Below, piece after piece: positions 3,501 through 36,693 of a DNA stretch of 63,493 nucleotides. The notes below the pieces were generated by a model. The model was not told the DNA's origin. It saw only the letters and a program-made list of their open reading frames with translations, and ran no database searches. This stretch comes from Promethearchaeota archaeon. Its GTDB lineage: Archaea > Asgardarchaeota > Lokiarchaeia > Sigyniarchaeales > SOKP01. The stretch spans positions 1-63,493 of the forward strand of contig DAOUVJ010000001.1 of NCBI GenBank assembly GCA_030667705.1. The letters are read 5' to 3'. The position numbers were made by a program, and so were the translations under genes. How positions within the stretch are numbered: the first letter of the stretch is position 1; every line of letters starts with the position of its first letter.

Positions 3501-5232
3501 TAAAATACAAGCTAAGAAAGATTTAGCAAGTATGAAAGAGAAGATTAAAGAAGAGAAATTAAAAGCAAAAGAAGAAAAAGCATCTCTTAAAGATCAAATG
3601 AAGAAAGCCAGACAAGAAGAATGGAAAGCAAGAAAAGAATCTCTTCAAGAAAGATGGAAACAATTAAGAGAATTACCAAAGAAAATGAGTGAATTTACAG
3701 ATGCTACTAAAAGAAATTGGAAATCCAGAATGGCTAATATGAAAGAGCAATTGGGGAAATTATCTAAAATTTCAAAAGCCCAATATCTTGTTGTGGATGC
3801 ATTTAAATCATTAGGAAAACGTTTAAAAAAGATGGGAAGCAAAATTTGGGGATATATAATGATGGGAGTTAGTGCTCTTGGCGCATTAATTAGCCCTTTA
3901 CTTACATCATTATCTGCAATATTAGCTCCAATTGGTGCTTTTGTAATGTGGTTAGCCAAAAGTGCAGTAGGAAAACTTATTGGAATGGGAGGGAAATTAG
4001 GAGCCGCAGGTGTTGCCGGTGTTGCAATGGCCGGGGTTGGAGCATATAAAGGAGTTAAAAAAGCTGAAGAATGGGGAACTTCTAAAACTGCTGCAGGAAT
4101 TGGTGGAGCACTGGGTGGAACTAAAAAAGGAAAAGCTGGTATTTTGGGAGGGGTTGCAAAGGGAGCCGCTTTGGGAGCAGCTGCAGGATCTATGATTCCT
4201 GTGGTTGGCACAGCAATTGGTGGAGTCGTTGGAGCAATAGCAGGCGGAATCATGGGATATGTCGGCGGAGAAAATATTGCAAAAGGAATGCAATATCTCG
4301 GAGGAAAAATTAAAAGTTTAGCAAAAGCAGTATTAAATTTTATTACATGGCCTTTCCGAATGATCAAAAAAGCTATAAGTACAGCTTTGGAGTTTTATCG
4401 AGGAAAATTAGAAAGTATTCCAATAATAGGAAGATTCTTTAGAAAGGGAAATTCTGAGGGAGCTGCTTCAGAAGAAGAAAAAAATGCTGCTCGAGCAAGA
4501 CGTAAAGAATCATTATTAGAAAGCAGGAAAGCGGCTGTAGAAAAGTTGGCGGCTGCAAAAAAGAGAGCGGCGGAACGGAAAAAAGCTATTAGAGGTTTCT
4601 TTTCCGGAGTAAAAAAGAAATTGGGATTTGCCGGAGATGCTCCAGTTTCAGCAAAAGTCCCAGAAAAAGTTAAAAAATCATTAGCTTCAAAAGTATCCGC
4701 TCCAATTACAGTTTTAGATAAAGCTCAATATGAAGGAAGAGAATGGATTTTACAAAGTGATGGGAGTTTATTAGTAGACGGAAGTCCTGCCTCAAAATCT
4801 CAAAGAAGTAAATATTTAAGTGAACAAACTAAAAGACTTAATGAAAGAATTGAATCTGGTAAATATGGAAGAAATGTTGTTCTCCGTGATAAAGAACGAA
4901 AATCAGCTTTTGAATCACAAATTAGAGATAGTGCAAATTCTCTTGTTATGGATAAAGGTAAACTTTCAAAAACTCAAGCGGCGGAAAAATTATTAGAAGG
5001 AAAATATGCAGCTGGAGAATTTGGGAAAGCAACTGGAAAAATGGCTGGTGAGATGGGGAAAAATAATGCAGCAATGGTTCACTCGACAAATGTTTTAAAT
5101 AATACCTCAACAATATTAGCAAATACTTCTTCAGCCAGTGGGGGAGGAGGTGGTGGTAATGGAGGAAATCAAGGAGGGTTTTCTAGTGGAGATAGAATGG
5201 CACAACAGGTTTTGGCTTGCGATATTTCTTAA
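532..5232 (+). CDS. putative tail tape measure protein
   Basis: 1566 aa with an AGGGAG SD 7 nt upstream. Contains a very long Lys-rich coiled-coil region and a Gly-zipper hydrophobic block (GAAGVAGVAMAGVG...GGVVGAIAGGIMGYVGG). Has two copies of a G..AE/GE(V/I)(V/I)(M/L)P motif (GGLAEIHPAEVVMPIEK; ILAHRGEIILPVKK) of the kind seen in tape measure proteins. Confidence 0.55.
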   Translation: MAKNIKPPQGTTSADSESQFRAKRINSLSDQLYQIENRTTKQTQNIQKQIKETTKATDSLQKTSDSKDVQDSLPEINKTIGKLNYTIQVMADGMKKITLNTAEGTKNALSQYGKAISSDINLDKQNTVAMALSRTSPLFGYYAGKFMETDVFKNATSKMSENIKKGMGNVWSSVKGTTRGIADSISNAHIGRKGKVDYSEESEIAFGKVKPSVKSTKHSISKLARDLNVQKRLMKPALKSEEVSYSDLTLTKISNDIAELKERSGDIPKLREGGYVEKGGLAEIHPAEVVMPIEKILDRIDKNAGPEKENQSKIAAGISLMSKSFAQVETYVGDQKRERKGLVSDFVTAFKTAQDDESKTWQDRLLKAILELKVGLIGMTSRLRIAWQSMLLDHPVMRNILMFGQTLKTAFTGGLKFVFGARGGAASRLSKAQRTSNVFDKIVNVISLIYMDFLPKLNDLVKYSKESLEFQTGQEAQSFKEQTWTMFDKVKNYMQGERSGTLLKDKIIDGLVSNLDLDRGSVDSAMGGARNIFSREARAARRAAREGTPGHAIGGVMRETSEILAHRGEIILPVKKVFELISSFSKGVYEIVKSIEPIKLLKKALEEMTKSIKTVASNISRISVETFQKSKENAEEIFKRIQEWDPIEKTKEFGDKFIKKPIEGMKESITTTWTKELEKARETRREKISTRTRRVGEQVKDFTLDPTKGKMGKTIDKLFEFKMNYRLKKEDAFDLKMDKKRSKLTRKYERKSEGITKKFLGLFDKHVDKSEKLHNQKLRKVEKLSNRRTSNFEKRMGSISNLKERLEARRIKKRERMSETQDARIVNAQRKIFWKGHKDRTDIQHKTQKKIFKAQEKAAKGVIEYQKGITSNFQKGFNFIFNRQKAAEEKEAKKIKKQMKQQNKIAKKTEKSIRKADKIKRKLDKKRDKWQIKISKLRAKVESKQAKQGAKLQAKIDFITAKKKAKVEAKLAKAKFKAELPMMLKKAKLAKIQAKKDLASMKEKIKEEKLKAKEEKASLKDQMKKARQEEWKARKESLQERWKQLRELPKKMSEFTDATKRNWKSRMANMKEQLGKLSKISKAQYLVVDAFKSLGKRLKKMGSKIWGYIMMGVSALGALISPLLTSLSAILAPIGAFVMWLAKSAVGKLIGMGGKLGAAGVAGVAMAGVGAYKGVKKAEEWGTSKTAAGIGGALGGTKKGKAGILGGVAKGAALGAAAGSMIPVVGTAIGGVVGAIAGGIMGYVGGENIAKGMQYLGGKIKSLAKAVLNFITWPFRMIKKAISTALEFYRGKLESIPIIGRFFRKGNSEGAASEEEKNAARARRKESLLESRKAAVEKLAAAKKRAAERKKAIRGFFSGVKKKLGFAGDAPVSAKVPEKVKKSLASKVSAPITVLDKAQYEGREWILQSDGSLLVDGSPASKSQRSKYLSEQTKRLNERIESGKYGRNVVLRDKERKSAFESQIRDSANSLVMDKGKLSKTQAAEKLLEGKYAAGEFGKATGKMAGEMGKNNAAMVHSTNVLNNTSTILANTSSASGGGGGGNGGNQGGFSSGDRMAQQVLACDIS

Positions 5233-5332
5233 CTTCAAAACTTTAATATTAAATAATTCTATCTAATATCTTCTATAATTCATGAAAAATATTTCTGAAT
5301 ACCAAAGGTCACTTAAAATTTAAAAACCCTTT

Positions 5333-5366
5333 AAAACCTATCATGCTTTGTTGTATGATAGGTTTT
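5333..5366. terminator. bidirectional terminator between convergent genes
   Basis: Perfect 12-bp stem aaaacctatcat (5333-5344) / atgataggtttt (5355-5366) with a 10-nt loop. T residues lie upstream and A residues downstream. It sits between the convergent stops at 5232 and 5378. Confidence 0.6.
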
Positions 5367-5377
5367 AAAATACAAGA

Positions 5378-6556
5378 CTAAAAATTTGGCATTGATGAAG
5401 ATAACTCATTAAATACTTCTGTCGATGTACTTGGAATTCTTGGCCCAGGTATATATGTTTCATCCCGGCTTAAAGATTCGTTTGAAGATCTATTATTTTT
5501 TTCTTTTTTTTTAGATTTCTCAAGTTCTAAAGATAATTGTTTAAAATCTGAACGAAGATAATGATACTCAACATTTGGTTTTTCTTCTTCTAAAACTTTT
5601 AAATAATTATTCAAAGTTGGACGATTTACAATCTCAACATCTCCTTCCTCGCAAACCATACTGCTATAAAGACTACCAAAATCTATTCTGACATCCACGA
5701 TTCCCAATCTTTGATTCCAGCCAATTTGCTGTTGATCTCCTCCTTTTATCACAGTAATGTTAGTTATTACTGCAGGATCTAAAGAAAAAACGCCCGGGCA
5801 TTTTATTTTATGAAAAAATGGCCATCTAAAAGTATTCCCATCTTTTGTAATGGGCGTGGCAAGAGTTAATAATACTGCAAGAGGTCCAATAATCGAATCT
5901 CTTGTTGCATCAAAATTTCCTGGGCAAGGATTAAATAATCTAACTGTCATTGAATAAGATGGAGAAAATCCACTATTTTTCCAAATGTTTGGAAAGTCGA
6001 CTCTGTGCCCAGCAAGCATTTTCCCAACGGTTCCTAATCCCGGTACATTTTCTAATGATTTTATTACAGTTCCCCCAGCATTTGTTAAACTTCCCATCAT
6101 ATCCAAAGCAGACCCAGTATGTCCCCCAACGTGCTTTCCAGCACCTTTTATCATTTCTGCTATTTTTGTAGTTGCACCACTTAAAGTATCACTTCCGGTC
6201 ATTTGAACCATTTCTTGAATTTTCTGTGCTCCAACGTCAGTCATTCCTTGTAAAAAAGTTTCACCATAATCATTTGAAAAACTATCGGTCGGAAAATTAT
6301 CCGCTAAAAATGCAACTTTTATTGGGTGTGTAACTTTATATCCTAAGTTTTGTAAAATACTATCATATTTTTCTGTATTTTCAGTTAGACTAAATAGAGA
6401 CATTCCAGAGGAGAAATTTGGTTCACAGGGAATAATCTCTGCTGTCGGCATAGACTCTATAACTACATGTTTTGAAACATATAAATTATTAAGCGGGGGT
6501 AAACCAAAAATTCCTTCATCTGGTTTTAATGTAATAAGACCTGCTGATTCTGGCAT
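5378..6556 (-). CDS. baseplate / tail-tube-associated protein (T4 gp48/gp54-like, tentative)
   Basis: 392 aa with a Gly/Thr-rich flexible middle. The motif RVDFPNIWKNSGFSPSYSMTVRLFNPCPG...GPLAVLLTLATP resembles my memory of tail-tube cap/initiator proteins. It lies in the baseplate module. Confidence 0.35.
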   Translation of the reverse strand: MPESAGLITLKPDEGIFGLPPLNNLYVSKHVVIESMPTAEIIPCEPNFSSGMSLFSLTENTEKYDSILQNLGYKVTHPIKVAFLADNFPTDSFSNDYGETFLQGMTDVGAQKIQEMVQMTGSDTLSGATTKIAEMIKGAGKHVGGHTGSALDMMGSLTNAGGTVIKSLENVPGLGTVGKMLAGHRVDFPNIWKNSGFSPSYSMTVRLFNPCPGNFDATRDSIIGPLAVLLTLATPITKDGNTFRWPFFHKIKCPGVFSLDPAVITNITVIKGGDQQQIGWNQRLGIVDVRIDFGSLYSSMVCEEGDVEIVNRPTLNNYLKVLEEEKPNVEYHYLRSDFKQLSLELEKSKKKEKNNRSSNESLSRDETYIPGPRIPSTSTEVFNELSSSMPNF

Positions 6557-6579: not shown

Positions 6580-8349
6580 TTAAGAATATATTTGATTAAA
6601 CTTTAGACTTCCACAATCCCAAATTCTTGTATAACCTTCTTTTTGTCTCAAAAGATATTCAGGAATATCTTTTGGTTCACTTGGTCTTTTTCTTAATCCA
6701 AATCTATGGATTCTATCTACGCCTTTTAAGTACCAATAATTTGGTTGAGTTATTTTATCTAATTCAAAACCTAATTGATAATACAAATTTCCTTGAGACC
6801 ATCTTCTATCAGCATAACTAAATATTTGATTCCATTCAAAATTCTTCTTGAAATGAGTTAATAGTTTTCTAGCAATTCCAGGTATGTGATAATTTGAATT
6901 TGAACAAAATCTATTTAGTTCCCAAACTCCTTCTTTTGCCTTTGATCCTTTTGAAATATTACCTTTTCCAAATGTCATAACTGAAACTAATTCTTCATTG
7001 TGAAATGCACCTAATTTAATTTGAGATGCATCTTTTCCTTGAATATGAAACTCTTCTAAAAACTCATTCTTAATTTTTGGATCTATTTCTTTAATTTCAC
7101 ATTTTCTTATATGGAGTCTTTTTAAATCATTATTAACATTTAAAATTTGTTTAATTCTTGATTTAACTATATCTTTTTTAAGCAACCACTCATCTTCAAA
7201 AATATGAATTAATTGAATTCCTTTTTCTTTGCATAAGTTAGTTTTTTGCAGGTGAGAATTAATTGGATCCGGTGATATTGCTTCTGAATGATAATACACG
7301 CCATTATATTCAAATGCTATTTTTCTATCCGGAATATGAATATCTAATTCTAAAAAATGATTAGTTTTTGGATTTTTAATAATATTTCTACAATTATGTT
7401 TAACTTTATCTTCTCCAATTAAATTACAAATAAATTTATAAATTTCTTTTTCAGCATTTGAAGAACCATCTTTTCTTGGATAGCATTTTGGGCAAGTATA
7501 TCCCTGTTGAATTTCGTTCCAAATTTGTCTGAATTTGTGATTGCATTTTAAACATTTCCAATTGTGTTTAAAACCAGCATCAATATATTTTTCATCTAAA
7601 AGTTCTAAATTTAAATGATTTAAATATTTAGTTAATTTCTTTGAAAATGCAATTCTTTGTTTATCCTTTTTCACTTTTTTAATCTCTTCACATTGAGAAT
7701 TATGCTCAACTCTCATAATTTTTAAATTAGTTTGTTTCATCTTTTCTTGGACTTTAGGATCTTGTCCTGCATATTTAACATTTCTAACTCTTAAATTAGT
7801 TTGTATTGATTTTTCTCTAACTTCTTTTGCTTCCATTGGATATCTAACATTTCTAACTCTTAAATTAGTTTGTATTGTCTTTTTTTGAATTTCATCGCAT
7901 TGTGATGGGTGTTTAGTATCCCAATTTTTCAATGAGGTTTGAATTTTCTTTTCTTTAATTATATCTGAATTACTTGGATTATCAACCCCAAGATTTTTTA
8001 AACAAGTTTGTTTATGAATTTCTTTAACTATATCAGCTTGCATTGCATGCTCAACATCGTAAATTTTTAAACAAGTTTCAATTTTTTTCTTTTGAATATC
8101 TGGATCACTTGTAGAGCATCTTGGAGAACAATATTTATGAAAACCTTTGGTAACAGATATAAATTTAGTATATTTTTCACATGAATCTAATTTTCCATAC
8201 ATTTCACAGATGTTATTCACTTTTCCTTTCATTAAAAATTTTGAATAATATTCTTCTTTTGTTATTCCTTTATGATTAAATTTAAGATGGCTTGCTAATC
8301 CTTTTATATTCTTTAATTCTTTTGCGCAGATTGCACATATCATTTTCAC
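6580..8349 (-). CDS. free-standing homing endonuclease, Hef-like (paralog 1)
   Basis: 589 aa. N-terminal C2H2-like finger (CAICAKELKNIKGLASHLKFNH), then tandem ~33-aa K.T.LK...V.NPS..DIIKEKK repeats. Followed by a WKCLKC...CPKC ribbon, a Vsr/PD-(D/E)xK-like LELDIHIPDRKIAFEYNGVYYHSE core, and a C-terminal YHIQG...RIWDCGSLKF domain. Confidence 0.65.
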   Translation of the reverse strand: MKMICAICAKELKNIKGLASHLKFNHKGITKEEYYSKFLMKGKVNNICEMYGKLDSCEKYTKFISVTKGFHKYCSPRCSTSDPDIQKKKIETCLKIYDVEHAMQADIVKEIHKQTCLKNLGVDNPSNSDIIKEKKIQTSLKNWDTKHPSQCDEIQKKTIQTNLRVRNVRYPMEAKEVREKSIQTNLRVRNVKYAGQDPKVQEKMKQTNLKIMRVEHNSQCEEIKKVKKDKQRIAFSKKLTKYLNHLNLELLDEKYIDAGFKHNWKCLKCNHKFRQIWNEIQQGYTCPKCYPRKDGSSNAEKEIYKFICNLIGEDKVKHNCRNIIKNPKTNHFLELDIHIPDRKIAFEYNGVYYHSEAISPDPINSHLQKTNLCKEKGIQLIHIFEDEWLLKKDIVKSRIKQILNVNNDLKRLHIRKCEIKEIDPKIKNEFLEEFHIQGKDASQIKLGAFHNEELVSVMTFGKGNISKGSKAKEGVWELNRFCSNSNYHIPGIARKLLTHFKKNFEWNQIFSYADRRWSQGNLYYQLGFELDKITQPNYWYLKGVDRIHRFGLRKRPSEPKDIPEYLLRQKEGYTRIWDCGSLKFNQIYS

Positions 8350-15775: not shown

Positions 15776-17587
15776 TCAATTATTAACCATTTTAAATTTT
15801 AAACTTCCACAATCCCAAATTCTTGCATAATCTTCTTTATATTTTAAATTCAATCTGTGAATTCTTTTGAAACTTTTTATATACCAATAGTCAGGTTTTA
15901 TAATTTGTTCTAATTCAAAACCTAATTGATAATACAAACTTCCTTGAGACCATCTTTTATCCGCATAGGAAAAGATTTTTTCCCATTTATAATTTTTCTT
16001 GAAATAATTTAATAGTTTTCCAGCAATTCCCGGAACATGGAAATTTGAATTTGAACAAAATCTATTCAATGACCAAACTTTTTCCTTATTTTTAAAAGTC
16101 ATAACTGAAATTAATTTATTGTTATAGAAAGCTCCAAGTTTAATATTAGAATTATCATATCCTTGAATGTGATAATTATCTAAGAATTTATTTTTTACTT
16201 TTGAATTTATTTCTTTAATTTTACATTCTTCTTTGTGAATTCTTGTGCCCTTATTAATATTCAAAATATGTCTAATAAGAGATTTAACAATATCTTGTTT
16301 AAATACCCACTCATCCTCAAAAATATGAATTAGTTGAATTCCTAATTTTTTGCATAAATTAGTTTTATGTAAATGATAATTTGAAACTTTAAAATTATCT
16401 AATTTACGAGATTCCTTTAAAACTTTTTCAGAATGCCAATACAATCCATTAAATTCAAAAGCTATTTTTTTATCCGGAATAAATATATCAAGTTCAAGAG
16501 GATATAATAAAGATCTATTATTCACAATTATTTTATTTTTAATTTCATCTTTTATAAAATCAGATAATTCTTTTTCTTTTGAAGAAGATCTATAATTTAT
16601 TGGCGGTCTGCATTTTGGGCAAGTAAAACCCTGTTGAATTAAATTCCAAATTTGAATAAAATGATTTCCACATTTTATGCATTTCCAATTATGTTTATGA
16701 TAACAATTCTTATATTGTTTATCAAGAAGTTCTACATTAAATGAACTTAAAATCTTTTCTAAATATTTAGTAAAAACTTTTAACTTTGTTTCTTTAATTT
16801 TGTTTTTAATTATATCACATTGAGAAGGAATTTTAGTCCCATATTTATTTAAATTAGTCTTAACAATTTTGTCTTTTATTTTTTTAGTTTTAGAAGGATT
16901 GTCAACACCATAAATTTTCACCCAAGCTTTCTTTTTATTTTCCTTAACTATATCTGAACTATTTGGACTTTCAAATCCATATTTTTTTAATGAAGTTATT
17001 TTGCCTTTTTCTCTTACTTCTTTAGATGATAATGAAGATTTCCCTCCATATTTTTCTAAATTAGTCTTTATAACATTGTTTCTAATAATTTGGGATTTCA
17101 TTGGATGAACTTCACCCCAATTTTTTAAAGATGTTTCTCTATATTTATTTTGAATAGTCTTAAGTTGTTCAGGTTTTCCATTAAAATTTTTTCTATATGT
17201 TTCACTTTTTTTCTTTTTAACAATATCAGATTTACTAGCATTGTCTACACCTAACTTTATTATACATGATTCTTTGCATTTCTCTTTCACACTGTCAGCT
17301 TGAAAAACAAATCTCGTTCCATATTTTTCTAAAGATTTTTCTTCCTTTTTCTTTTTAACAAGATTGGATTTACTAACACAACCCGGACCGCAGTATTTAG
17401 AATAACCAGTTTTTAAACCCCTATAACTGGTTATTCTAATGCAGTTTTCATTTTGACAAATTCCTTCATTTGAATCTTTTTTAAGGAACTTATCAAAATA
17501 TTCTTTGGTAGTAAAGTTATGAGTTTTAAGATGTAGAGCAAGTTTTAAAGTATTTGAAAATTCACATTTGCATATTTCACATATCAT
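15776..17587 (-). CDS. free-standing homing endonuclease, Hef-like (paralog 2)
   Basis: 603 aa with the same architecture as 6580-8349: MICEICKCEFSNTLKLALHLKTH, repeats, WKCIKC...CPKC, LELDIFIPDKKIAFEFNGLYWHSE, ...RIWDCGSLKF. Confidence 0.65.
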   Translation of the reverse strand: MICEICKCEFSNTLKLALHLKTHNFTTKEYFDKFLKKDSNEGICQNENCIRITSYRGLKTGYSKYCGPGCVSKSNLVKKKKEEKSLEKYGTRFVFQADSVKEKCKESCIIKLGVDNASKSDIVKKKKSETYRKNFNGKPEQLKTIQNKYRETSLKNWGEVHPMKSQIIRNNVIKTNLEKYGGKSSLSSKEVREKGKITSLKKYGFESPNSSDIVKENKKKAWVKIYGVDNPSKTKKIKDKIVKTNLNKYGTKIPSQCDIIKNKIKETKLKVFTKYLEKILSSFNVELLDKQYKNCYHKHNWKCIKCGNHFIQIWNLIQQGFTCPKCRPPINYRSSSKEKELSDFIKDEIKNKIIVNNRSLLYPLELDIFIPDKKIAFEFNGLYWHSEKVLKESRKLDNFKVSNYHLHKTNLCKKLGIQLIHIFEDEWVFKQDIVKSLIRHILNINKGTRIHKEECKIKEINSKVKNKFLDNYHIQGYDNSNIKLGAFYNNKLISVMTFKNKEKVWSLNRFCSNSNFHVPGIAGKLLNYFKKNYKWEKIFSYADKRWSQGSLYYQLGFELEQIIKPDYWYIKSFKRIHRLNLKYKEDYARIWDCGSLKFKMVNN

Positions 17588-18053: not shown

Positions 18054-19700
18054 TTAAAATATAACATTATTCTTTAAAGCATTAAATTTTAAACTTCCAC
18101 AATCCCAAATTTTAAGATATCCTTCTTGAGCCCTTAAAATCCATTCTGGAATATCTTTTGGTTCATCTTTAGTTTTTCTTAATCCGAATCTATGAATTCT
18201 ACTATAATCTTTTAAGTACCAATAATTAGGATTAGTAATATGTTCTAATTCAAATCCTAATATGGTATAAAGATTTCCTTGACTCCATCTTCTATCTGAA
18301 TATGAAAAGATTTCTTTCCATTCAAAATTCTTCTTGAAATAACTTAATAGTTTTCCAGCAATTCCTGGAATATGATAATCTGAATTTGAACAAAATCTAT
18401 TTAGTTCCCAAACTTTATCTTGGGATCTGGATCCTTTTGAAATATTTCCTTTTCCAAAAGTCATAACTGAAATTAATTTCTCATTATAAAAAGCTCCAAG
18501 TTTAATTTTAGAAGCATCTTTTCCTTGAATATGATATGTTTCTAAAAACTCATTTTTAACTTTTGGATCTATTTCTTTTATTATACATTTTCTTGCATGA
18601 ATTCTTTTATTATCATTAATATTCAAAATTTGTTTAATACGGGATTTAACTATATCTTGTTTAAACATCCATTCATCTTCAAAAATATGAATTAATTGGA
18701 TTCCTAATTTTTCACATTCAATTGTTTTATTTAAATGATAGTTTGGAGATTGTTCTGAATGCCAATAAAATCCATCATATTCAATTGCTATTTGTTTGGA
18801 TGGAATATAAATATCAATTTCCCAATTTCTATTTGTTTTTGGATTTTTAATTAAATTCCAACAATTATGTTCAACTTTATCAGACCCAATTAAATCACAA
18901 ATAAAATTATAAATCTCTTGTTCTGCAATTGAAGTTCCCATCAGTCTGGGGAAACATTTTGGACATTGATATCCTTGTTGAACACTATTATACAAATGCA
19001 CAAAAATTGTATTACAAATTTTACATTTGAATTTATAATCTATATGAGCATGCTCATATTTATTTAAAAGTATCAGATTTCTGTCTTCAAGAAATTTTTC
19101 TAATTTAAGAAAAAAGTTTTTCATATATGTATGTTTACTTTTAAGTTTAAACTTTTCAACTTTCATTGGGCTATCAACACCATATTTTTGAATGTATGTG
19201 TTTTTTAGCTTTTGTTTAATATCAGGATCATACATTGGGTGACCACCAAACTTCTCATCAAATGTCTTTTGTCTTTTTTCTTTAACCCAATCTAAACCAT
19301 AAAAGTTGTCTGTATTATATTTCTCTTTTAATGAAACTAATAATGTATCATAATGAGCAGCTTTTAAACTTCCATAATTTTTAATAGCAGTTTTCTTTTT
19401 CTTTTCTTTAACCCAATCTAATTTTGAAATATTATCAACATTATATTTTTTCTTCATAGATTCTTTTAAAACTTTATTTGTTTCTTGTGGGGTTGGACAA
19501 GGGTCATGACAATATTTTCTAAAACCTTCTTTCATATTCATATAAGTAGTTTTAGAACCACATTCTTTACATAACCCTTCTCCAGGTAATTTTATATATT
19601 TTGAATAATATTCTTGATGAGTAATTTTATGAATCTTAATATGTTTTGATAAACTATTCAAATTTTTTAATTCTTTTTCACAAATTTCACATTTAATCAT
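18054..19700 (-). CDS. free-standing homing endonuclease, Hef-like (paralog 3)
   Basis: 548 aa: MIKCEICEKELKNLNSLSKHIKIH, repeats, FKCKIC...CPKC, WEIDIYIPSKQIAIEYDGFYWHSE, ...KIWDCGSLKF. Confidence 0.65.
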   Translation of the reverse strand: MIKCEICEKELKNLNSLSKHIKIHKITHQEYYSKYIKLPGEGLCKECGSKTTYMNMKEGFRKYCHDPCPTPQETNKVLKESMKKKYNVDNISKLDWVKEKKKKTAIKNYGSLKAAHYDTLLVSLKEKYNTDNFYGLDWVKEKRQKTFDEKFGGHPMYDPDIKQKLKNTYIQKYGVDSPMKVEKFKLKSKHTYMKNFFLKLEKFLEDRNLILLNKYEHAHIDYKFKCKICNTIFVHLYNSVQQGYQCPKCFPRLMGTSIAEQEIYNFICDLIGSDKVEHNCWNLIKNPKTNRNWEIDIYIPSKQIAIEYDGFYWHSEQSPNYHLNKTIECEKLGIQLIHIFEDEWMFKQDIVKSRIKQILNINDNKRIHARKCIIKEIDPKVKNEFLETYHIQGKDASKIKLGAFYNEKLISVMTFGKGNISKGSRSQDKVWELNRFCSNSDYHIPGIAGKLLSYFKKNFEWKEIFSYSDRRWSQGNLYTILGFELEHITNPNYWYLKDYSRIHRFGLRKTKDEPKDIPEWILRAQEGYLKIWDCGSLKFNALKNNVIF

Positions 19701-19757
19701 TTAAATTCCTTTCATTTTATCTTGCTTATAAAATTCTAACTATGAGAAATTCACTTT

Positions 19758-20383
19758 CTATGCTTGTTTTGCACCATAAGCTTCAACCTTTCCCTTAGAT
19801 GCCATAAAAAGATCATTTGCAAAACTTTGACATTTATTAACAACCCAATCTTCATGCCAAACATAATCTACATTAAATTCAATCTCGACATCAAGTTTTC
19901 CAACAGTTTCCACATCTGACGTATAAAGATCTTGAGGATCTTTAGATGGGAACATGCCATCATAGCACGCGCTATACTCTATAGTCTTACAATCTGGTGC
20001 AGTTGTCCAATAATACATCATTCCGCCATAAGTTGGTTTTGAATAACCTTTTCCCGCTACTCCATCATCTAAATTTGAAACTCCAGTTCTGTAATCTCGG
20101 ATCATTTTAACCCATCCGTGCATAATGTCAAGAATAGGAGTTCTATTCATTTCTAAAAATTTAACAGATACAGTATTTCCGTAGTCTATATTACCGGGCA
20201 CAGCCCATTTCACACCACCCAAACCAGTAAATTCAACTTTATTTAACGTTCCTCCTGGGGGTGTTACACTCAAACATGTCGCAGCGAGAACTCTTTGAAT
20301 ATCCTCATTTGATGCTAATCCGCTCACTCCTTTTGTATATTTATAAAGATCTGGTGGTAATTTAGAAAACCAGATAAAATGAT
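19758..20383 (-). CDS. tail tube protein (T4 gp19-like), exon 2
   Basis: The pattern ...LAATCLSVTPPGGTLNKVEFTGLGGVKWAVPGNIDYGNTVSVKFLEMNRTPILD...YDGMFPS...DVEIEFNVDY resembles gp19-type tube proteins. The only in-frame start of the tracked ORF is a GTG at 20327 with AAGGAG directly abutting it and no spacer. The frame stays open upstream to 20410. The proposed 3' splice site follows G20384. Confidence 0.6.
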
Positions 20384-20671
20384 CAATATCTTCAATAAGA
20401 ATTGTTAATTCTTACCCGTTCAATTTCTTGAACTGCTGCATATTACTATGCAAGTTGAGACTATCTCTTTACCTTTTATTTAAATTTAATAAATAATTAG
20501 GCACTCCCCGTTTCGGCTCACTTGAGCCTACTTCCTTTCGGAATAGTCGTTGCACGTTCTCTTTTAAAAACTTTAAAAAGAGCTTCGCTCAGGATTGTCC
20601 TCAAAGAGGAGTTTCCCTGAATTAAAGGAGTTTTCATTGTAAAGTTTCCCTTACAAGGGGCATCAAATTTT
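20384..20671 (-). ncRNA. group I self-splicing intron (ORF-less, 288 nt) in the tail tube gene
   Basis: Minus-strand RNA carries four conserved-like elements: P-like AAUUCAGGGAAAC (20611-20623), Q-like ACAAUCCUGAGCG (20586-20598), R-like GUGCAACGACUAUUCC (20540-20555) and S-like AAGAGAUAGUCUC (20457-20469), with P7 formed by GACUA/UAGUC. Hairpins: GGCUC-AAGU-GAGCC; a GUAA-loop hairpin at 20436-20453; a GAAA-loop hairpin at 20418-20433. P1 pairs exon GGGU (20675-20672) with GCCC (20661-20658), including a U.G pair. P10 pairs exon 2 AUCA (20383-20380) with UGAU (20665-20662), contiguous with P1. The region is visibly G+C-richer than its surroundings. Confidence 0.7.
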
Positions 20672-20765
20672 ACCCTGAGACGTAGGGATCTGCGACCCCC
20701 AGAGTTGTTCCGCCGAACTTGCGGGTTAATATATTATCTTTTAATGCGGCAAATGAATATAGCAT
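20672..20765 (-). CDS. tail tube protein, exon 1 (31 codons plus 1 nt)
   Basis: GGAGGA SD lies 7 nt upstream of the ATG at 20765. Translation is MLYSFAALKDNILTRKFGGTTLGVADPYVSG, and the next codon would be UAA. Splicing after U20672 joins U+AU (Tyr) and continues HFIWFSKLPPDLYKYTKGVSGL..., giving a 239-aa product. Confidence 0.55.
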
Positions 20766-20766
20766 A

Positions 20767-21714
20767 TTATTTTCCTCCATTTTTATTATTAAAAATTTCT
20801 AATGATTTTTGATTATATCTCTTCTCACAAACTAATTTTGCCAACTCACCAAATGAACAAGAAGTTCCTTTTGGGTGGCATTTTTTTACATGACATTCAT
20901 GACAAACTATTAATCCATTATCTGGATCTAAAGCCATTTCTGGATGAGTTTTTTGCGGATAAATATGATGACTTCTCATATTTTCAATAGATCCACAAAT
21001 CTCACATTGATTAAATCCATATAATTTTTCATTTCTTTTATAAACTTCATCTCTCCAAATTTCAAGACCTAAAATTGGTGAACTTTTTTCTGGAATATGG
21101 CCAGCATTTATTAAATCTCGTCTAATGATTTGCTCAGCTGTTTTTCCATACAAATCACAAGTCATTTTACAATGTTCTGAACAATAAAAATAAGAACCAT
21201 CATTTCCGTCTTTATGTTCTAAACATCTTATTCTTTCTCCAATTTGAGTATGTGTTAATATAAACCATCCATTCTTTTCTTTTGAGTTTTCACAATTATG
21301 ATTTTTACAATGTCCTTGAATTTCTCCAGTTTTAATATCTTTTCTTAATTCTTCAATTTTACAAAAGAAGGGATGATTTTCTTTAAGAGATTCTATTGTT
21401 AATTTCTTAGCTTTACTCATTTTCGCTATAATTTTTTTTGCTTTGTCTTTCCCATATACTTCTAAATAATTCTTCCCTTTTTTATTTGAAATTTGACCTA
21501 TATGAGATTCGGATATTCTCTTTTTCATTTCTATAGTTCTTTTAGCTCCCATTCGTGATTGAGAGCTTTTCTTTATTAATTCAGGACAACTTTTCCAAGT
21601 TTTGGAGCAACATTTCTTTCCTCTAATTGTGACTATATAATTTGCTTGTTGTCCACACCCATATTCACATAATTGATCAGTTTCTATTCTTATCGGTTTA
21701 ATCCTCTCGTTCAT
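20767..21714 (-). CDS. free-standing HNH homing endonuclease
   Basis: 315 aa. HNH motif HHIYPQKTHPEMALDPDNGLIVCHECH; N-terminal Cys clusters; a NUMOD3-like GAKRTIEMKKRISESHIG segment. Its stop codon lies 1 nt upstream of the tube exon-1 ATG. Confidence 0.7.
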   Translation of the reverse strand: MNERIKPIRIETDQLCEYGCGQQANYIVTIRGKKCCSKTWKSCPELIKKSSQSRMGAKRTIEMKKRISESHIGQISNKKGKNYLEVYGKDKAKKIIAKMSKAKKLTIESLKENHPFFCKIEELRKDIKTGEIQGHCKNHNCENSKEKNGWFILTHTQIGERIRCLEHKDGNDGSYFYCSEHCKMTCDLYGKTAEQIIRRDLINAGHIPEKSSPILGLEIWRDEVYKRNEKLYGFNQCEICGSIENMRSHHIYPQKTHPEMALDPDNGLIVCHECHVKKCHPKGTSCSFGELAKLVCEKRYNQKSLEIFNNKNGGK

Positions 21715-21725
21715 CTTAATTTTCT

Positions 21726-21787
21726 CCTTTTGCTAAGAAAAATTTAAAACGGGTTAGGGAAACTCTAAAGCAAAAGGAAAGTTTCCC
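21726..21787 (-). promoter_or_regulatory. alternative RNA structures over the HNH ribosome-binding site
   Basis: Minus RNA forms a hairpin GGGAAACU...AGUUUCCC (21757-21764 / 21780-21787). The loop segment CCUUUUGCU (21769-21777) is complementary to AGCAAAAGG (21726-21734), which overlaps the AAGGAG SD of the HNH gene. Confidence 0.3.
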
Positions 21788-21828
21788 AAGGTCATGACTC
21801 CCTGTCCCCATTATTATTTATTCACTAA

Positions 21829-22320
21829 TTATTTATTTGTTCTCAGTTTAATTTCCTTCATTGTATCTTTCCAATTTCCTTTAAATTGTAATGCCCTATC
21901 ATCAACATATAAAACGGCTCCTAATTTTACTCCTGTAATTTGGTCAAAATATAATTTATTCTTAATAAGCCATTTTTTTAATTCTTCTGTTAATTGTTTA
22001 GTATTTGGGTTTTCCCCAGAAGCTCGAGTACTAAAAATAACTATTTCAAATCCATCTTTATGTAATTGAGTTAATGCTTCTTTTGCTCCTGATATAACAT
22101 TTTCAAGTTTTCCATTATTCCACCCATTTTTATATTGATGTAAAACTCCATCAACATCAATCATTATTCTTTTTTTCTCTTTTTTAGTAGGCATTTCTTG
22201 CTCCGGATATATAGTTTTCAAAACTGAATTCTTTTTCTTAGTATCCGGAAACGAATCCATAGGAAAAATAGATTCATCTTTCTGTATGTCTTTTAAATAA
22301 TTATCAAGAACAAATTTCAT
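21829..22320 (-). CDS. HAD-superfamily hydrolase/phosphatase
   Basis: 163 aa with motif I IMIDVDGVL, a Thr/Ser motif IVIFSTR, and a C-terminal YVDDRA acidic motif. Confidence 0.6.
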   Translation of the reverse strand: MKFVLDNYLKDIQKDESIFPMDSFPDTKKKNSVLKTIYPEQEMPTKKEKKRIMIDVDGVLHQYKNGWNNGKLENVISGAKEALTQLHKDGFEIVIFSTRASGENPNTKQLTEELKKWLIKNKLYFDQITGVKLGAVLYVDDRALQFKGNWKDTMKEIKLRTNK

Positions 22321-22382
22321 ATATAATCTCCTTTTTATTTTGTTCTAAAAATTCTGATAGATTGTTTATTATTTATAGAATG

Positions 22383-22401
22383 AATTACTATATATATTAA
22401 T
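22383..22401 (+). promoter_or_regulatory. conserved promoter-like 19-mer aattactatatatattaat
   Basis: The identical 19-mer recurs at 36722-36740, and a close variant (tactatatatatta) at 50557-50570. Each lies about 55-60 nt upstream of a plus-strand start codon. Confidence 0.4.
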
Positions 22402-22453
22402 ATCTGAGAAGGATTTATTTGTAAACCTATTTTAAATTATCAAGGGGGGTATA

Positions 22454-23332
22454 ATGAAACAATTAACAGAAAAGCAAAAAATCAAACAGGAAAATTTTTC
22501 ATACTTAAATAAAGAAGAGAAGAAATATGATAAAACGATAAAAATATATGACAGTAATGGTGAGGTAATAGATACTCTAAAATTCTCAGAAAACAAAGTA
22601 AGAGAATTTCAAAATCAAGTTAACTGGTATAAAATTTCTAAGAAGGGTCATTTAAGTGAAAATTTTATAAGGGAATTCAAAGGTGAACTTGACTGGTCCA
22701 CACTTTCTCGTTATCAAAAACTATCAATGGAGTTCATAAAGGAATTCAAAGATAAAGTTGATTGGCACGAAATCTCTTACAATCAAAAATTATCAATGTA
22801 TTTCATAAGGGAATTCCAGAATAAAGTTGATTGGGACGGAATTTCTTCTAATCAAAAACTATCAATGGAGTTCATAAAGGAATTCCAAGACAAAGTTAAT
22901 TGGAGCGCAATCTCTTACAATCAAAAGCTCCCGGAGAACTTCATAAGGGAATTCCAGAATAAAGTTGATTGGGACGGAATTTCTTCTAATCAAAAGCTCT
23001 TGGTTGAATTCATAAGGGAATTTCAGGATAAAGTTGATTGGTGTGGAATCTCTTACAATCAAATACTCTTAGAGGACTTCATAAGGGAATTCCAGAATAA
23101 AGTTGATTGGGACGGAATTTCTTCTAATCTGATAACAAAACTATCAATGCAGTTCATAAGGGAATTCGAAGATAAAGTTAATTGGATTAGAATTTCTTAT
23201 TGCCAAATGTTAACAGAAAATTTTATAAGAGAATTCAAAGATAGATTTAGTAAAAAAGGTTGGATTGGGATTTTTTCCTCTCAAATACTTTCACCTGAGT
23301 TCGTAAAAGAATTCAAAAATAGAGTTAAGTAG
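22454..23332 (+). CDS. 23-aa tandem-repeat protein (about 10 Trp-anchored repeats)
   Basis: 292 aa. The repeat unit is FIREFQ(N/D)KVDW.(G/A)IS.NQKLS.E, period 23 aa (69 nt). Two alternating subtypes produce near-identical 138-nt DNA repeats. Strong GGGGGG SD. Confidence 0.7.
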   Translation: MKQLTEKQKIKQENFSYLNKEEKKYDKTIKIYDSNGEVIDTLKFSENKVREFQNQVNWYKISKKGHLSENFIREFKGELDWSTLSRYQKLSMEFIKEFKDKVDWHEISYNQKLSMYFIREFQNKVDWDGISSNQKLSMEFIKEFQDKVNWSAISYNQKLPENFIREFQNKVDWDGISSNQKLLVEFIREFQDKVDWCGISYNQILLEDFIREFQNKVDWDGISSNLITKLSMQFIREFEDKVNWIRISYCQMLTENFIREFKDRFSKKGWIGIFSSQILSPEFVKEFKNRVK

Positions 23333-23529: not shown

Positions 23530-24183
23530 ATGGAAGAGCAAAAAAATCAAACTGGAAAATTTCAAATTGAAGATGACTGGAACAAAATTTCTTATAATCA
23601 AATACTCTCAGAAAATTTCATAAGGGAATACCATGATAAAGTTGACTGGAGTGGCATTTTTTATAAACAAATACTTTCTGAGGAATTTATAAGGGAATTT
23701 CAAAATAAAGAAGACTGGCATAAAATTTTTTATTATCAAATACTCTCTGAAAATTTTATAAGGGAATTCCAGGATAAAGCTGACTGGAGAGGAATTTCTT
23801 ATTATCAAATACTCTCTGAAAATTTTATAAGGGAATTCCGGGATAAAGTTGAGTGGGTTAGAATTTCATGTACACAAATACTCTCAGAGGAATTCATAAG
23901 AGAATTCCAGGATAAAGTTAACTGGTGTGGAATTTCTTATTATCAAATACTTACAGAGAAATTTATAAGGGAATTTCAAGATAAAGTTGACTGGCACGGA
24001 ATTGTTTATAAGCAAACGATCTCAATGATCTCGAAAAAATTTATAAAAGAATTCCAAAATGAAATTAATAAAAAAGAAATTGCTTATCCCCAAATACTTA
24101 CAGAAGAATTTATAAATAAGTTCCAATATAATGGTACGGGAGATAAAATTTCATATCTTCACAACCTTCAGAGAAATTCATAA
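23530..24183 (+). CDS. 23-aa tandem-repeat protein (about 8 repeats), paralog of 22454-23332
   Basis: 217 aa with the same unit: W..ISY.QILSE(N/E)FIREF(Q/R)DKV(D/N)W. Confidence 0.7.
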   Translation: MEEQKNQTGKFQIEDDWNKISYNQILSENFIREYHDKVDWSGIFYKQILSEEFIREFQNKEDWHKIFYYQILSENFIREFQDKADWRGISYYQILSENFIREFRDKVEWVRISCTQILSEEFIREFQDKVNWCGISYYQILTEKFIREFQDKVDWHGIVYKQTISMISKKFIKEFQNEINKKEIAYPQILTEEFINKFQYNGTGDKISYLHNLQRNS

Positions 24184-29797: not shown

Positions 29798-30166
29798 ATG
29801 AAGATTAAAAAAGACTTTGTAACCAATTCAAGTTCTACTAGTTTTTTAATTTCAAATAAAACAAAAAACAAGAAAAAACTTAAAATTAAAATAGAGATGG
29901 AATATGATTTAAATAATTTAGTTGAGAAGGAAATAACTTCTTTGGCTGAATTTTATAATTCTGATCTCTATAAAGATAAATGTTGGTTATTAACAGATAA
30001 GCAAAAAAATAAATGTATCAAAATTTTAAAAAATGAAGGAACAATATTTCATATAGAAGCAGCAGACCATTATAATGAAGATCCAATTGAAAATATGATT
30101 TATGATGATGGTCTGGAGAAATTTATAGAAAATAATCCAGATCTTGAAATCATTGTTGGAGATTAA
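29798..30166 (+). CDS. MKIKxDFVTNSSS-family protein, tandem copy 1
   Basis: 122 aa with N-terminus MKIKKDFVTNSSSTSF. Confidence 0.65.
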   Translation: MKIKKDFVTNSSSTSFLISNKTKNKKKLKIKIEMEYDLNNLVEKEITSLAEFYNSDLYKDKCWLLTDKQKNKCIKILKNEGTIFHIEAADHYNEDPIENMIYDDGLEKFIENNPDLEIIVGD

Positions 30167-30201: not shown

Positions 30202-30570
30202 ATGAAGATTAAAAAAGATTTCATAACAAACTCAAGTTCTACAAATTTTATACTTGCAAATAAAACAAAAAACAAGGAAAATCCTAGAATTAAAATAGAG
30301 TTGGAATATGATTTAACTAATTTATCTGAGGATAAAATAGCTTCTTTGGATGAATTCTATAATTCTGATCTTTATAAAGATGAACATTGGTTAATGTTAA
30401 CAGATGTACAAAAAAATAAATGCATCGAAATTTTAAAAAATGAAGGAACAATATTTAATATAGAGGTATCAAATGAAAATGATGATTTAATTGAAAATGA
30501 ATTGCATGTGAATGGGCTGGCGAAATTCATAAAAAATAATCCAGATCTTGAAATCATTGCTGAAGATTAA
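30202..30570 (+). CDS. MKIKxDFVTNSSS-family protein, tandem copy 2
   Basis: 122 aa with N-terminus MKIKKDFITNSSSTNF. Confidence 0.65.
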   Translation: MKIKKDFITNSSSTNFILANKTKNKENPRIKIELEYDLTNLSEDKIASLDEFYNSDLYKDEHWLMLTDVQKNKCIEILKNEGTIFNIEVSNENDDLIENELHVNGLAKFIKNNPDLEIIAED

Positions 30571-30605: not shown

Positions 30606-30971
30606 ATGAAGATTAAAAAAGATTTTGTGACCAATTCAAGTTCTACAAGTTTTATACTTGCAAATAAAACAAAACGCGAGAAAAATCTTAAAATTAAAAT
30701 AGAAATGGAATATGATTTAAATAATTTAGTCGAGATGGAAATAACTTCTTTAGCTGAATTTTATAATTCTGATCTTTATAGAGATAATTATACATCAAGT
30801 GCACAAAGAAATAAATGTATAGAAATTTTAAAAAATGGAGGGATAATATATTATATACGGGCAACAACCTATAGTGACGATAATGATCCAATTGAAAATA
30901 TGATTTATGGGAATGGTCTGGAGAAATTTATAGAAAATAATCCAGTTCTTGAAATCATTGGTGAATGTTAA
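30606..30971 (+). CDS. MKIKxDFVTNSSS-family protein, tandem copy 3
   Basis: 121 aa with N-terminus MKIKKDFVTNSSSTSF. Confidence 0.65.
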   Translation: MKIKKDFVTNSSSTSFILANKTKREKNLKIKIEMEYDLNNLVEMEITSLAEFYNSDLYRDNYTSSAQRNKCIEILKNGGIIYYIRATTYSDDNDPIENMIYGNGLEKFIENNPVLEIIGEC

Positions 30972-35221: not shown

Positions 35222-35434
35222 ATGCAAATCGAAATCTCAGATCAACATATTAAAAATTTGGCAAAGGTTAATAATCTGAAAATAAATGATATGAATAAGT
35301 TGCAAAAATATTTCAAATTTAAAGCAGGTGATGAAGCACAAGAAAATGGAGCAACTTATTTATGTATTTTTATAGAGCAATTGTTACGCTTGGCTTATGA
35401 AGATGATGCAGGAGTTGAACTAATAGAAATATAA
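35222..35434 (+). CDS. hypothetical protein
   Basis: CAGGAG SD before the ATG at 35222. N-terminus MQIEISDQHIKNL... Confidence 0.45.
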   Translation: MQIEISDQHIKNLAKVNNLKINDMNKLQKYFKFKAGDEAQENGATYLCIFIEQLLRLAYEDDAGVELIEI

Positions 35435-35506
35435 AAGCCGTGATAGATGAACTAAATAAGCATAGTCATTATTCGTTATAATGTTTGAGATTTGAAGGAG
35501 AAAAAG

Positions 35507-35968
35507 ATGGCAATAGAAAAGATATATATTGATAAAACACTTTCTGTTAAACAAATCGAACAAAAATATAGTATCCATCTCCGTACATCTTATAGAGTCA
35601 AAAAAAGAGGTTACATAATAAAAAAAACAAAAACGATTAACATTTCAAGAAAAGATTTTGACTATAATAAAGCAAAAAAAGCATCTGCATATACTTATTT
35701 TTATAAAATTAAACAGATTGTCCCGTGCCATTTTTTGTCATTAAACAATTTTTACGATGATTTACAACAAGAGGGGATTATTAGATGTTTTGAATTATCT
35801 GGAGAAACCAGAAAGGATAAAAACAATAATAAGTTTGGTTACTATTGCAAGATTGCTGAATATGCCATGTATAGTTTTTTAAAAAAAGTTCATATGCTCG
35901 GAAGTTATAATAACAAAACCGTAAGTTTTGAAGAAAATATCTCAGGACATGGAATTTACGAAATCTAA
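35507..35968 (+). CDS. putative DNA-binding / sigma-like transcription factor (tentative)
   Basis: GAAGGAG SD before the ATG at 35507. Has an N-terminal HTH-like segment (LSVKQIEQKYSIHLRTSYRVKKRG). The segment DDLQQEGIIRCFEL...FGYYCKIAEYAMYSFLKK is reminiscent of sigma-70 region 2. Confidence 0.3.
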   Translation: MAIEKIYIDKTLSVKQIEQKYSIHLRTSYRVKKRGYIIKKTKTINISRKDFDYNKAKKASAYTYFYKIKQIVPCHFLSLNNFYDDLQQEGIIRCFELSGETRKDKNNNKFGYYCKIAEYAMYSFLKKVHMLGSYNNKTVSFEENISGHGIYEI

Positions 35969-36036
35969 CCGTTTAGGCCAATTAATAATTATATAAAAGA
36001 GAAAAATAATTAATAAAAACTAGTGGGGAAATCTAA

Positions 36037-36237
36037 ATGAACAAATGTCCAGTATGTGGTAAAATGTGGGAACCATGTTATTTGTGCAGGCAAGGTGAAA
36101 GACATCAGAAATGTGTTTATGATTCAATGTGCCATGATTGTATAATGGAAGAAAAATATGGTTCCCAAGAATCAGATAATACAACAATAGTACCGAATAG
36201 TGTTTTAAAAGTGATTTTGAAAAATAATTCAGATTGA
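36037..36237 (+). CDS. Cys-rich small protein
   Basis: 66 aa with CPVC...CYLC...C...CHDC. Confidence 0.45.
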   Translation: MNKCPVCGKMWEPCYLCRQGERHQKCVYDSMCHDCIMEEKYGSQESDNTTIVPNSVLKVILKNNSD

Positions 36238-36268
36238 GATATATTTTTTATATTGAAAGGAGATAAAA

Positions 36269-36463
36269 ATGTACGACAAAATTCAAAGAACAGAAGTGTG
36301 TGATGGCAAATATACTCATGTTTTTGATGAACAAACTGGAAGACAATATGTAGAACGATATGGTGAAAAGTGGCGCGATTTAGCCGGGGATGGTTTTATT
36401 TTGGCTTTATGTCAGCGCATTTGGGAACTTGAAAAACGCCCAGGATATGCGGATGATACATAA
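36269..36463 (+). CDS. hypothetical protein
   Basis: 64 aa with a strong AAGGAG SD. Confidence 0.5.
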   Translation: MYDKIQRTEVCDGKYTHVFDEQTGRQYVERYGEKWRDLAGDGFILALCQRIWELEKRPGYADDT

Positions 36464-36501
36464 TTATAACACATTATGATCATTAAATTGGGAGACAAAA
36501 A

Positions 36502-36693
36502 ATGAAAAATTATGAAGTAAGTATAGAAACGGAAACAGTCGGGGAAAAAGAATTGACATATTTATATGTTTTTCATCAAGGTAATCATTATAAAACTGGG
36601 GTAAAAATTGACGATCCAATAATTGAAATCCCATTGATAATAGAAACACTGGTTCGTCATTTGGTTAAATGTGCCCAATCGAAAAAGACATAA
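36502..36693 (+). CDS. hypothetical protein
   Basis: 63 aa with a GGGAG SD. Confidence 0.45.
   Translation: MKNYEVSIETETVGEKELTYLYVFHQGNHYKTGVKIDDPIIEIPLIIETLVRHLVKCAQSKKT

Follow-up and report, generated by a model that had tools for sequence, protein, structure and literature searches.

A tail tube gene of an uncultivated jumbo-type phage, split by a group I intron and abutted by a free-standing HNH endonuclease gene

Group I introns in phage tail tube genes are already documented in the myophage Twort and in Bacillus prophages, and we describe here a further member. It lies on contig DAOUVJ010000001.1, which was analysed over its whole length of 63.5 kb (63,493 nt) and is referred to below as the window; all window features are on the minus strand unless marked (+). 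The window belongs to the genome of an uncultivated, low-G+C, jumbo-type myophage. Its tail tube gene is divided into exon 1 (20672-20765) and exon 2 (19758-20383) by a 288-nt group I intron (20384-20671) free of open reading frames (ORFs), and a free-standing gene for an HNH endonuclease (20767-21714) abuts exon 1. This arrangement had been proposed from the letters alone, in what we call the original prediction.

The closest described intron is that of Twort. Its orf142, the tail tube gene of this myophage according to PMC11878797, contains ORF-less group I introns of ~250-300 nt (Landthaler and Shub 1999; AF132670), which have an IA-type core with P7.1 and P7.2, as does the window intron. 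In blastn searches with the window intron, the lowest E-value belongs to the Twort record (2e-16, 74.5% across 131 nt), and all three orf142 introns match the Rfam family RF00028 with 64-101 bits. The presence of several introns in orf142 also has a parallel in a related locus, L192, which recalls the combination of multiple introns and exon skipping in Twort. In contrast, the two phages belong to different families, and the 142-aa Twort protein differs from the 239-aa window protein, which is of the phiKZ gp30 type. In Twort the insertion points fall within the 3' quarter of orf142, whereas the window intron is at codon 32, and in the 2.4-kb Twort record orf142 directly follows the sheath gene, the place upstream of exon 1 that a nuclease gene takes in the window. 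A group I intron is also carried by a tail tube gene of a Bacillus prophage (PMC2504315). There too the insertion is in frame, and a stop codon falls at the beginning of the intron or close to it. The carrier is a temperate Bacillus phage or prophage; the passages considered, our only basis for comparison, describe no adjacent free-standing nuclease. PMC3984707 and PMC2504315 describe a stop codon at the intron start as frequent among group I introns of bacteria and phages, and the window intron follows this pattern.

For the nuclease gene, the closest parallels are systems in which an intron is moved by an enzyme encoded outside it. T4 mobE moves the nrdB intron in trans (Wilson and Edgell 2009, PMC2790892). 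As in the window, a free-standing HNH gene is located directly upstream of the interrupted gene; MobE acts on the 5' region of that downstream gene, and the nrdB intron, which encodes no functional nuclease, moves by co-conversion. The nrdB intron retains a defunct I-TevIII ORF, whereas the window intron has none; moreover, nrdB is non-structural, and cleavage by the window HNH protein is a prediction only. Collaborative homing has been described for F-CphI and the psbA intron of cyanophage S-PM2, and in T7-like phages for an HNH enzyme and an intron of the DNA polymerase gene (Zeng et al. 2009; Bonocora and Shub 2009; reviewed in PMC3984707). These introns, like that of the window, are within a highly conserved coding stretch. 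The cut sites of their nucleases have been mapped to the intron insertion site, while the window HNH protein is known from its gene alone, and F-CphI is Endo VII-like and thus of a different nuclease family (PMC6083498). By analogy, the mechanism that we propose for the window most resembles the T4 mobE/nrdB and collaborative-homing cases.

Intron core, splice sites and spliced product

The public annotation in NCBI and Logan lists the tube gene as P0002, a 189-aa protein with a GTG start (19758-20327), and misses exon 1 and the intron. The longest exon-2 ORF, which extends to 19758, has this GTG (20327) as its sole start codon, and an AAGGAG overlaps it with zero spacer. The frame remains open 5' of the GTG as far as a stop at 20414-20412. 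Direct reading of the upstream sequence reveals a GGAGGA ribosome-binding site (20773-20778), within the final codons of the HNH gene, separated by a 7-nt spacer from an ATG at 20765. The frame opened by this ATG comprises 31 codons and is halted by a UAA at 20672-20670, which is composed of the last base of exon 1 and the first two bases of the intron and therefore straddles the 5' splice site in frame. Exon 1 accordingly consists of 31 codons plus one base and encodes MLYSFAALKDNILTRKFGGTTLGVADPYVSG, as delimited by homolog alignment and by tblastn, which assigns residues 1-31 to it. Exon 2, defined by its ORF and by homolog alignment, consists of two bases, 207 codons and the stop.

The region from 20681 to 20436 matches RF00028 (Intron_gpI) with 111.9 bits (E 2.8e-28; gathering cut-off 50 bits) over model positions 1-253 of 253. 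The match stops at the P9 hairpin; P9.1 and P9.2 follow before the 3' splice site. No other Rfam match was found in the window, even at E <= 0.1, so there is no second intron in it, and the intron contains no ORF >39 aa. The minimum-free-energy fold recovers P1-P9.2 with a z-score of -5.15, and none of 100 shuffled sequences folds equally well. Further support comes from an alignment of six introns, five of them distinct copies, with slid pairing partners and 500 shuffles as controls. Standard pairs occupy 97.7% of the alignment cells, compared with 37-49% for slid partners, and 30 of the 83 pairs change on both sides, compared with 3-7 in the slid controls; the observed values were matched in 0 of the 500 shuffles.

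The core can be followed helix by helix. The P, Q, R and S blocks are at 20623-20611, 20598-20586, 20555-20540 and 20469-20457. P2 (20636-20656), a hairpin with a GAAA loop, shows compensatory changes in five of its nine pairs. P3 (20629-20625 with 20509-20505) and P5 (20610-20598) also carry compensatory changes, and P3 encloses P4 to P6a, the 5' strand of P7, P7.1 and P7.2. P4 (20620-20615 with 20594-20589) and P6 are invariant, the latter within the P6/P6a element at 20588-20552. The guanosine-binding helix P7, a pseudoknot of GACUA (20548-20544) and UAGUC (20463-20459), is invariant in all copies. P7.1 (20543-20532) and P7.2 (20528-20515) both covary, P8 (20503-20470) has four covarying pairs, and P9 (20453-20436, with a GUAA loop), P9.1 (20435-20416) and P9.2 (20415-20395) have two to four each. 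Because the two extra hairpins P7.1 and P7.2 separate the 5' strand of P7 from the 3' strand of P3, we assigned the core to the IA type known from phage introns such as those of T4, Twort and SPO1; the assignment is made at the level of IA, above subgroups such as IA2.

The internal guide UGAU-GCCC, read directly as UGAUGCCC at 20665-20658, accounts for both splice sites. Its GCCC (20661-20658) pairs with exon-1 GGGU (20675-20672) in P1, which is paired in the consensus structure and places a U20672.G20661 wobble at the 5' splice site. Its UGAU (20665-20662) pairs with exon-2 AUCA (20383-20380) in P10. The 3' splice site is between the terminal intron G (omega G, G20384) and A20383, and joining U20672 to A20383, with one base of codon 32 contributed by exon 1, yields ...DPYVSG-Y-HFIWFSKLPP... 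within a 239-aa protein. Only G20384 and G20390 permit an in-frame join without a new stop. The acceptor G20390 was rejected: it would insert two residues, ID, that are found in no homolog. G20384 was chosen because it is the sole acceptor that gives a product colinear with the homologs, and it also fits the P1 and P10 pairings. Among 5.8 billion proteins searched, 720 were homologs of the spliced product, the best of which are ~240 aa long and share 70-83% identity at 100% query coverage; the database entry P0002 came up in the same search. In an alignment with 19 of the 720, all intron-less, the junction is gap-free, and G31, H33, F34, W36 and F37 are invariant. The GGG-U at the 5' splice site is present in all five intron-bearing alleles described below, and the 3' acceptor position is identical in the other four (L183, L190, L191 and L192).

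Taken together, the existence of the intron, its boundaries and its product are established by computation, and we are highly confident of the group I intron, its splice sites, its product and the free-standing HNH gene as a set, leaving homing in trans aside. Guanosine-dependent self-splicing is predicted from the conserved core. The pre-mRNA would adopt the standard group I core; attack by an external guanosine after U20672, at the U.G pair of P1, would be followed by attack of exon 1 after G20384, P10 holding the two exons in register. Once ligated, the exons would encode the 239-aa tube protein, translated from ATG 20765 behind its strong ribosome-binding site, and on unspliced RNA the UAA across the 5' splice site would halt ribosomes. 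Since P0002 starts at the GTG while the spliced product has 239 aa, the public tube-gene annotation is truncated; the 50 residues absent from it include 15 positions invariant among homologs.

Most of the original prediction for this region is borne out. The start codons, ribosome-binding motifs and 31-codon frame described above are where it had placed them, as are the four conserved blocks, the P7 strands and the GUAA and GAAA hairpins. Its calls of a group I intron without an ORF, of the guide pairings with both exons and of the splice after U20672 and G20384 agree with the Rfam match, the fold and the five-copy covariation, and with the gap-free alignment to intron-less homologs through DPYVSG|YHFIWF. 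Its description of the intron as G+C-richer stands in part: at 35%, the intron exceeds the window mean (28.9%) and the HNH gene (28.6%), but is below exon 1 (45.7%) and roughly equal to exon 2 (36.7%).

The tube protein and its genomic setting

The identity of the split gene as a tail tube gene, also proposed in the original prediction, is upheld by remote homology and structure comparison. The protein has no match in Pfam, PHROGs yield 'virion structural protein' only, and a narrow profile of the tube family has no match in the PDB. With a diverse profile of 99 sequences, the solved tube protein gp30 of phiKZ (PHIKZ030) is matched at E 1.2e-5, a tube protein of the T4-like type at 5e-4 and gp54 of T4 at 0.01. 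An AlphaFold (AF2) model of an 83%-identical homolog, computed from the 99-sequence diverse alignment, has a pLDDT (predicted local distance difference test) of 93.7; an earlier prediction from 27 close homologs (pLDDT 47) was unusable and was discarded. Foldseek searches with the homolog model identified the phiKZ tube (9xps, 9xpf; E 2e-12), the inner tube of phi-kp24 (8bfk; 4e-11), the KP1 tube and the T4 gp19 tube (5w5f; E 1e-9). The model and the profile matches together make it well supported that the gene product has the phiKZ gp30 / T4 gp19 tail-tube fold and belongs to that family.

A distant homolog in the Staphylococcus jumbo phage Machias sits directly after the tail sheath gene. 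In the window, the tube gene is not beside the sheath gene (37338-39272), which is ~17 kb away and is followed by nothing tube-like. The tube gene heads a baseplate module that continues with a 143-aa ORF, a gp26-like hub, a gp25-like wedge and a gp6-like wedge. We consider a role as the major tube protein likely; a tube-like baseplate protein is a conceivable alternative. In the 1.4 kb downstream of the sheath gene (within 35400-37340), just short ORFs are present, on both strands.

For comparison, we retrieved 80 related loci from IMG/VR by means of the tube protein; the tube gene is intron-less in all 80. The upstream neighbour, a HAD-like phosphatase gene (21829-22320 in the window), adjoins the tube gene in most relatives and is visible in 74 of the loci. 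The conserved order is HAD-like gene, tube gene, (143-aa ORF), hub and gp25-like gene, with a median gap of ~40 nt between the HAD-like and tube genes. Directly downstream of the window tube gene lies a large homing-endonuclease-like gene (18054-19700; 548 aa, phrog_3339). This gene is absent from that position in most relatives, L194 included, in most of which the 143-aa ORF or the hub gene is directly 3' of the tube gene.

Endonuclease genes and other intron-bearing alleles

The HNH gene (20767-21714, stop included; 315 aa) closes with TAA 20769-20767, one base ahead of ATG 20765. Its protein matches PHROG HNH families across aa 220-283 (E 1e-5 to 3e-4), and a profile of six homologs matches the HNH endonuclease 5h0m in the PDB (E 1.8e-4); the best E-value against Pfam HNH_2 is 0.09. 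The HNH domain (aa ~235-280) has the pattern CxxC...HH...N...CxxCH, read as CEIC...SHH...N...CHECH, and the N-terminal half contains Cys-rich modules of the CxYGCG type. The gap between the HAD-like and tube genes, in which the HNH gene is inserted, is vacant in 67 of the 74 related loci; the other seven hold a nuclease gene there, five being HNH homologs (38-48% identity) and two of the large phrog_3339 type. Related genomes carry the HNH family in several copies dispersed over many sites; one 223-kb contig alone has at least eight. Because it is sporadic at this site, multi-copy and scattered, the gene at 20767-21714 is, judging from sequence and distribution, a typical free-standing homing-endonuclease gene, and it lies outside the intron, as the original prediction had it.

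A scan of 19500-22500 for promoters and terminators returned nothing that exceeds shuffle expectation. An inverted repeat, GGGAAACTTTCC...AGAGTTTCCC, unlisted by the simple terminator scan, is present at ~21757-21787 in the 114-nt spacer between the HAD-like gene and the HNH start. This repeat might act as a terminator or form a regulatory hairpin that keeps nuclease expression down, as has been reported for T4 mobE. In addition to the HNH gene, the window contains three paralogous homing-endonuclease-like genes (6580-8349, 15776-17587 and 18054-19700; 589, 603 and 548 aa) that share 41-52% mutual identity, match phrog_3339/phrog_559 and sit between baseplate and tail genes. A remnant at 390-515 (+) matches the final 45 aa of one of these large nucleases.

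Other alleles of the split gene were found through their truncated annotation and by pattern search. P0246, a 33-aa library 'protein' from contig L183, terminates exactly at the splice junction, and in L183 the tube gene matches RF00028 (105 bits) at the position of the window intron. The P0246 cluster has five members, all of them 33-aa 'proteins' of the exon-1 type from related contigs. A DNA pattern built from blocks common to the window and L183 introns was run on metagenomes and returned four loci (L189, L190, L191 and L192), in each of which the tube gene is split after residue 31. L189 and L191 are identical across the compared stretch from the homing-endonuclease gene to exon 2, and we therefore count five distinct intron-bearing alleles: the window, L183, L190, L191 and L192. 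In IMG/VR, the 37 phage introns picked up by a scan with the P4-P6 motif are unrelated, and all lie outside tube genes; scans there with the guide-sequence pattern and with the combined pattern that was run on the metagenomes gave no matches. Two short N-terminal ORFs, P0234 and P0242, were considered as split alleles and rejected as frameshifts or assembly errors. Two related tube genes (L186:4001-4686 and L187:195-916) are broken a few codons past the intron site without an insert, most likely through sequencing or assembly frameshifts.

The L192 locus (ENA UPXM01010777, activated sludge) carries two related introns, at 5196-5493(-) and 4875-5170(-), 25 nt apart. The upstream one interrupts the gene after codon 23, the other one base into codon 32, and a 25-nt mini-exon, GTAGCAGATCCATACTTAACTGGGT, is left between them. 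The guide of the extra, upstream intron, GCUAU-GCCC, fits its own exon flanks, and each of the two guides suits its own site. Comparison of alleles reveals mosaics around these sites. Between L183 and L190, the intron and its ~25-nt flanks are 98-100% identical, whereas other parts of the tube gene share 78-90% and the upstream nuclease region 45-70%. L190 and L192 are 97.9% identical from the exact 3' splice site of the extra intron onward and ~79% identical upstream of it; on this comparison, the breakpoint is a recombination boundary at the intron site. Both mosaics look like the trace of break-initiated gene conversion, and, as judged from these sequence patterns, the intron is mobile in the phage population.

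The other intron-bearing alleles also have nuclease-like genes next to exon 1, at L183:3771-4988, L190:1090-1989(-), L191:5618-6472 and L192:5579-6763(-), with products of 284-405 aa. These proteins, together with that of L185:58-1269, have in common a C-terminal domain of ~100 aa (phrog_5104) with an invariant D-H...N...N...K and the ending SSITLEELLxEIK, for which no Pfam or PDB profile match was found. The domain is joined to varying N-terminal zinc modules, either CxYGCG repeats, as in the window HNH protein, or C2H2 fingers, as in the 548-aa window nuclease. From its conserved residues, we infer that the DH...N...N pattern is HNH-like, and the domain may be an unrecognised variant of the His-Me finger that has been subject to domain shuffling.

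Relation between the intron and the adjacent nuclease

A nuclease-like ORF ends 1-22 nt before exon 1 in all five intron-bearing alleles, compared with seven of 74 intron-less loci, which had been collected irrespective of nucleases. The exact probability of such a difference is ~4e-5 if the five alleles are independent and ~2e-3 if they represent three lineages. On the basis of these counts and of the mosaics that break at intron sites, we favour a mechanism in which the adjacent nuclease would cut the tube gene within its conserved 5' end and the intron would be mobilised in trans by these breaks. A free-standing HNH homing-endonuclease gene would have inserted between the HAD-like and tube genes. 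During co-infection, tube alleles that lack the intron or the nuclease would be broken by the enzyme within or close to their conserved 5' end, repair would proceed from the nuclease-carrying genome, and gene conversion would bring the nearby intron along. The account as a whole, comprising the split tube gene, the free-standing HNH gene and intron mobilisation in trans, is in our assessment moderately probable.

Several observations weigh against this mechanism. The closest relative, L194 (83% aa identity in the tube protein), has an orthologous HNH gene abutting an intron-less tube gene; orthology was judged from the 33 C-terminal residues visible on the contig, which are 82% identical. HNH homologs with 38-48% identity are found beside intron-less tube genes in ~8 further loci, among them L002, L008, L016, L056, L084 and L116. 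No clear tract of co-conversion emerged around the intron site when the window was compared with L194. Moreover, the nucleases next to the other intron alleles match the window HNH protein in the N-terminal Cys-rich modules only (28-39% identity) and have a different C-terminal domain, and the association between nuclease and intron is based on ~3 independent lineages. Because HNH genes occur beside intron-less tube genes, the intron is not needed to protect a genome from its own nuclease, and the pair is not an obligate unit. The 'collaborative homing' arrangement named in the original prediction is thus retained in its layout and in the nuclease-intron association, and not as a strict partnership: a strict model, in which genomes with the nuclease are always interrupted by the intron, does not hold for L194 and the six named loci, and the occurrence of the window nuclease lineage beside uninterrupted alleles argues against a partnership of the kind known from the described systems. 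We therefore use the term for a resemblance of layout, with the function being a prediction.

These same observations invite a reading in which the intron and the HNH gene, as two unconnected selfish elements, share one invasion hot spot and their adjacency is functionally meaningless. The HNH gene would then spread by intron-less homing into the intergenic site between the HAD-like and tube genes, while the intron would move via other nucleases, general recombination or reverse splicing, or merely persist. Besides L194 and the ~8 loci with HNH homologs, the scattering of the HNH family over many sites, with its copies in the 223-kb contig, and the three other large nuclease genes that the window has in its baseplate module are in keeping with independence, as is the comparison of L183 with L190, in which the intron is ~99% identical yet the upstream nuclease genes share 45-70%. 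It does not readily account for a nuclease-like gene abutting exon 1 in 5/5 intron alleles (~3 lineages) as against 9% of intron-less loci, or for similarity breakpoints at the intron sites, as break-initiated conversion there would give, and we consider it possible but rather unlikely. The intron might instead serve mainly as immunity, by splitting the recognition site of a nuclease directed against the GVADPYxxGYHFIWF-coding stretch, with mobility being secondary. That nuclease could be encoded by the phage's own genome or by a competing phage, and the tube gene would be shielded during co-infection. The psbA intron of S-PM2 works in this way (PMC3984707), and competition by nucleases between the jumbo phages PhiPA3 and PhiKZ has been reported, as cited in PMC11878797. 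Insertion in the most conserved DNA stretch of the tube gene and the two different introns 25 nt apart in L192 would also suit such a role. The uninterrupted site is nevertheless tolerated in genomes with HNH homologs, and sequence data alone do not separate immunity from homing in trans; as the main function of the intron, we regard immunity as improbable.

The intron itself could, in principle, be a decayed, non-splicing relic, with the phage making the 189-aa protein from GTG 20327, as the database call P0002 implies. Such decay is at odds with the full-length, high-scoring RF00028 match, the intact core helices and the covarying copies, and with an intact exon 1 behind a strong ribosome-binding site, set against a GTG without a spacer after AAGGAG. 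The shorter protein would also lack the 15 invariant positions, and the same split, with both exons open, recurs in four other alleles. We consider this extremely improbable. Returning to mobilisation in trans, a broader version would view the conserved 5' end of the tube gene as an arena of trans-acting intron homing in these phages, with ORF-less group I introns at two sites 25 nt apart, recombination boundaries precisely at these intron sites, and varying free-standing nucleases that have common Cys-rich modules and swapped catalytic domains, a classical HNH in the window and the unassigned DH...N...N domain in other alleles. We advance this broader version tentatively and hold it to be doubtful; if true, it would offer a population-level snapshot of a proposed route by which mobile introns come into being, with a possibly new nuclease domain.

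The window case leaves the understanding of group I introns and of homing unchanged, and its value is more specific. It corrects an annotation error, replacing a truncated public record of 189 aa with a 239-aa product, and gene callers are set to repeat this error in related metagenomic contigs, as the 33-aa 'proteins' such as P0246 illustrate. It adds an example from a structural gene of uncultivated jumbo-type phages to the few known pairs of an ORF-less intron and a free-standing nuclease. The natural set of alleles, with two insertion sites, several nuclease types, and intron and nuclease each present or absent, is suited to tests of homing in trans, co-conversion and immunity.

Two groups of repeated genes elsewhere in the window were also recorded. 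Just upstream of the HAD-like gene, and divergent from it, are two paralogs composed of ~23-aa internal repeats (...NFIREFQNKVDWDGISSNQKL...; phrog_3532) at 22454-23332 (+) and 23530-24183 (+). Three closely alike, tandem paralogous ORFs of 121-122 aa, with the sequence MKIKKDFVTNSSSTSF..., are located at 29798-30166, 30202-30570 and 30606-30971 (+).

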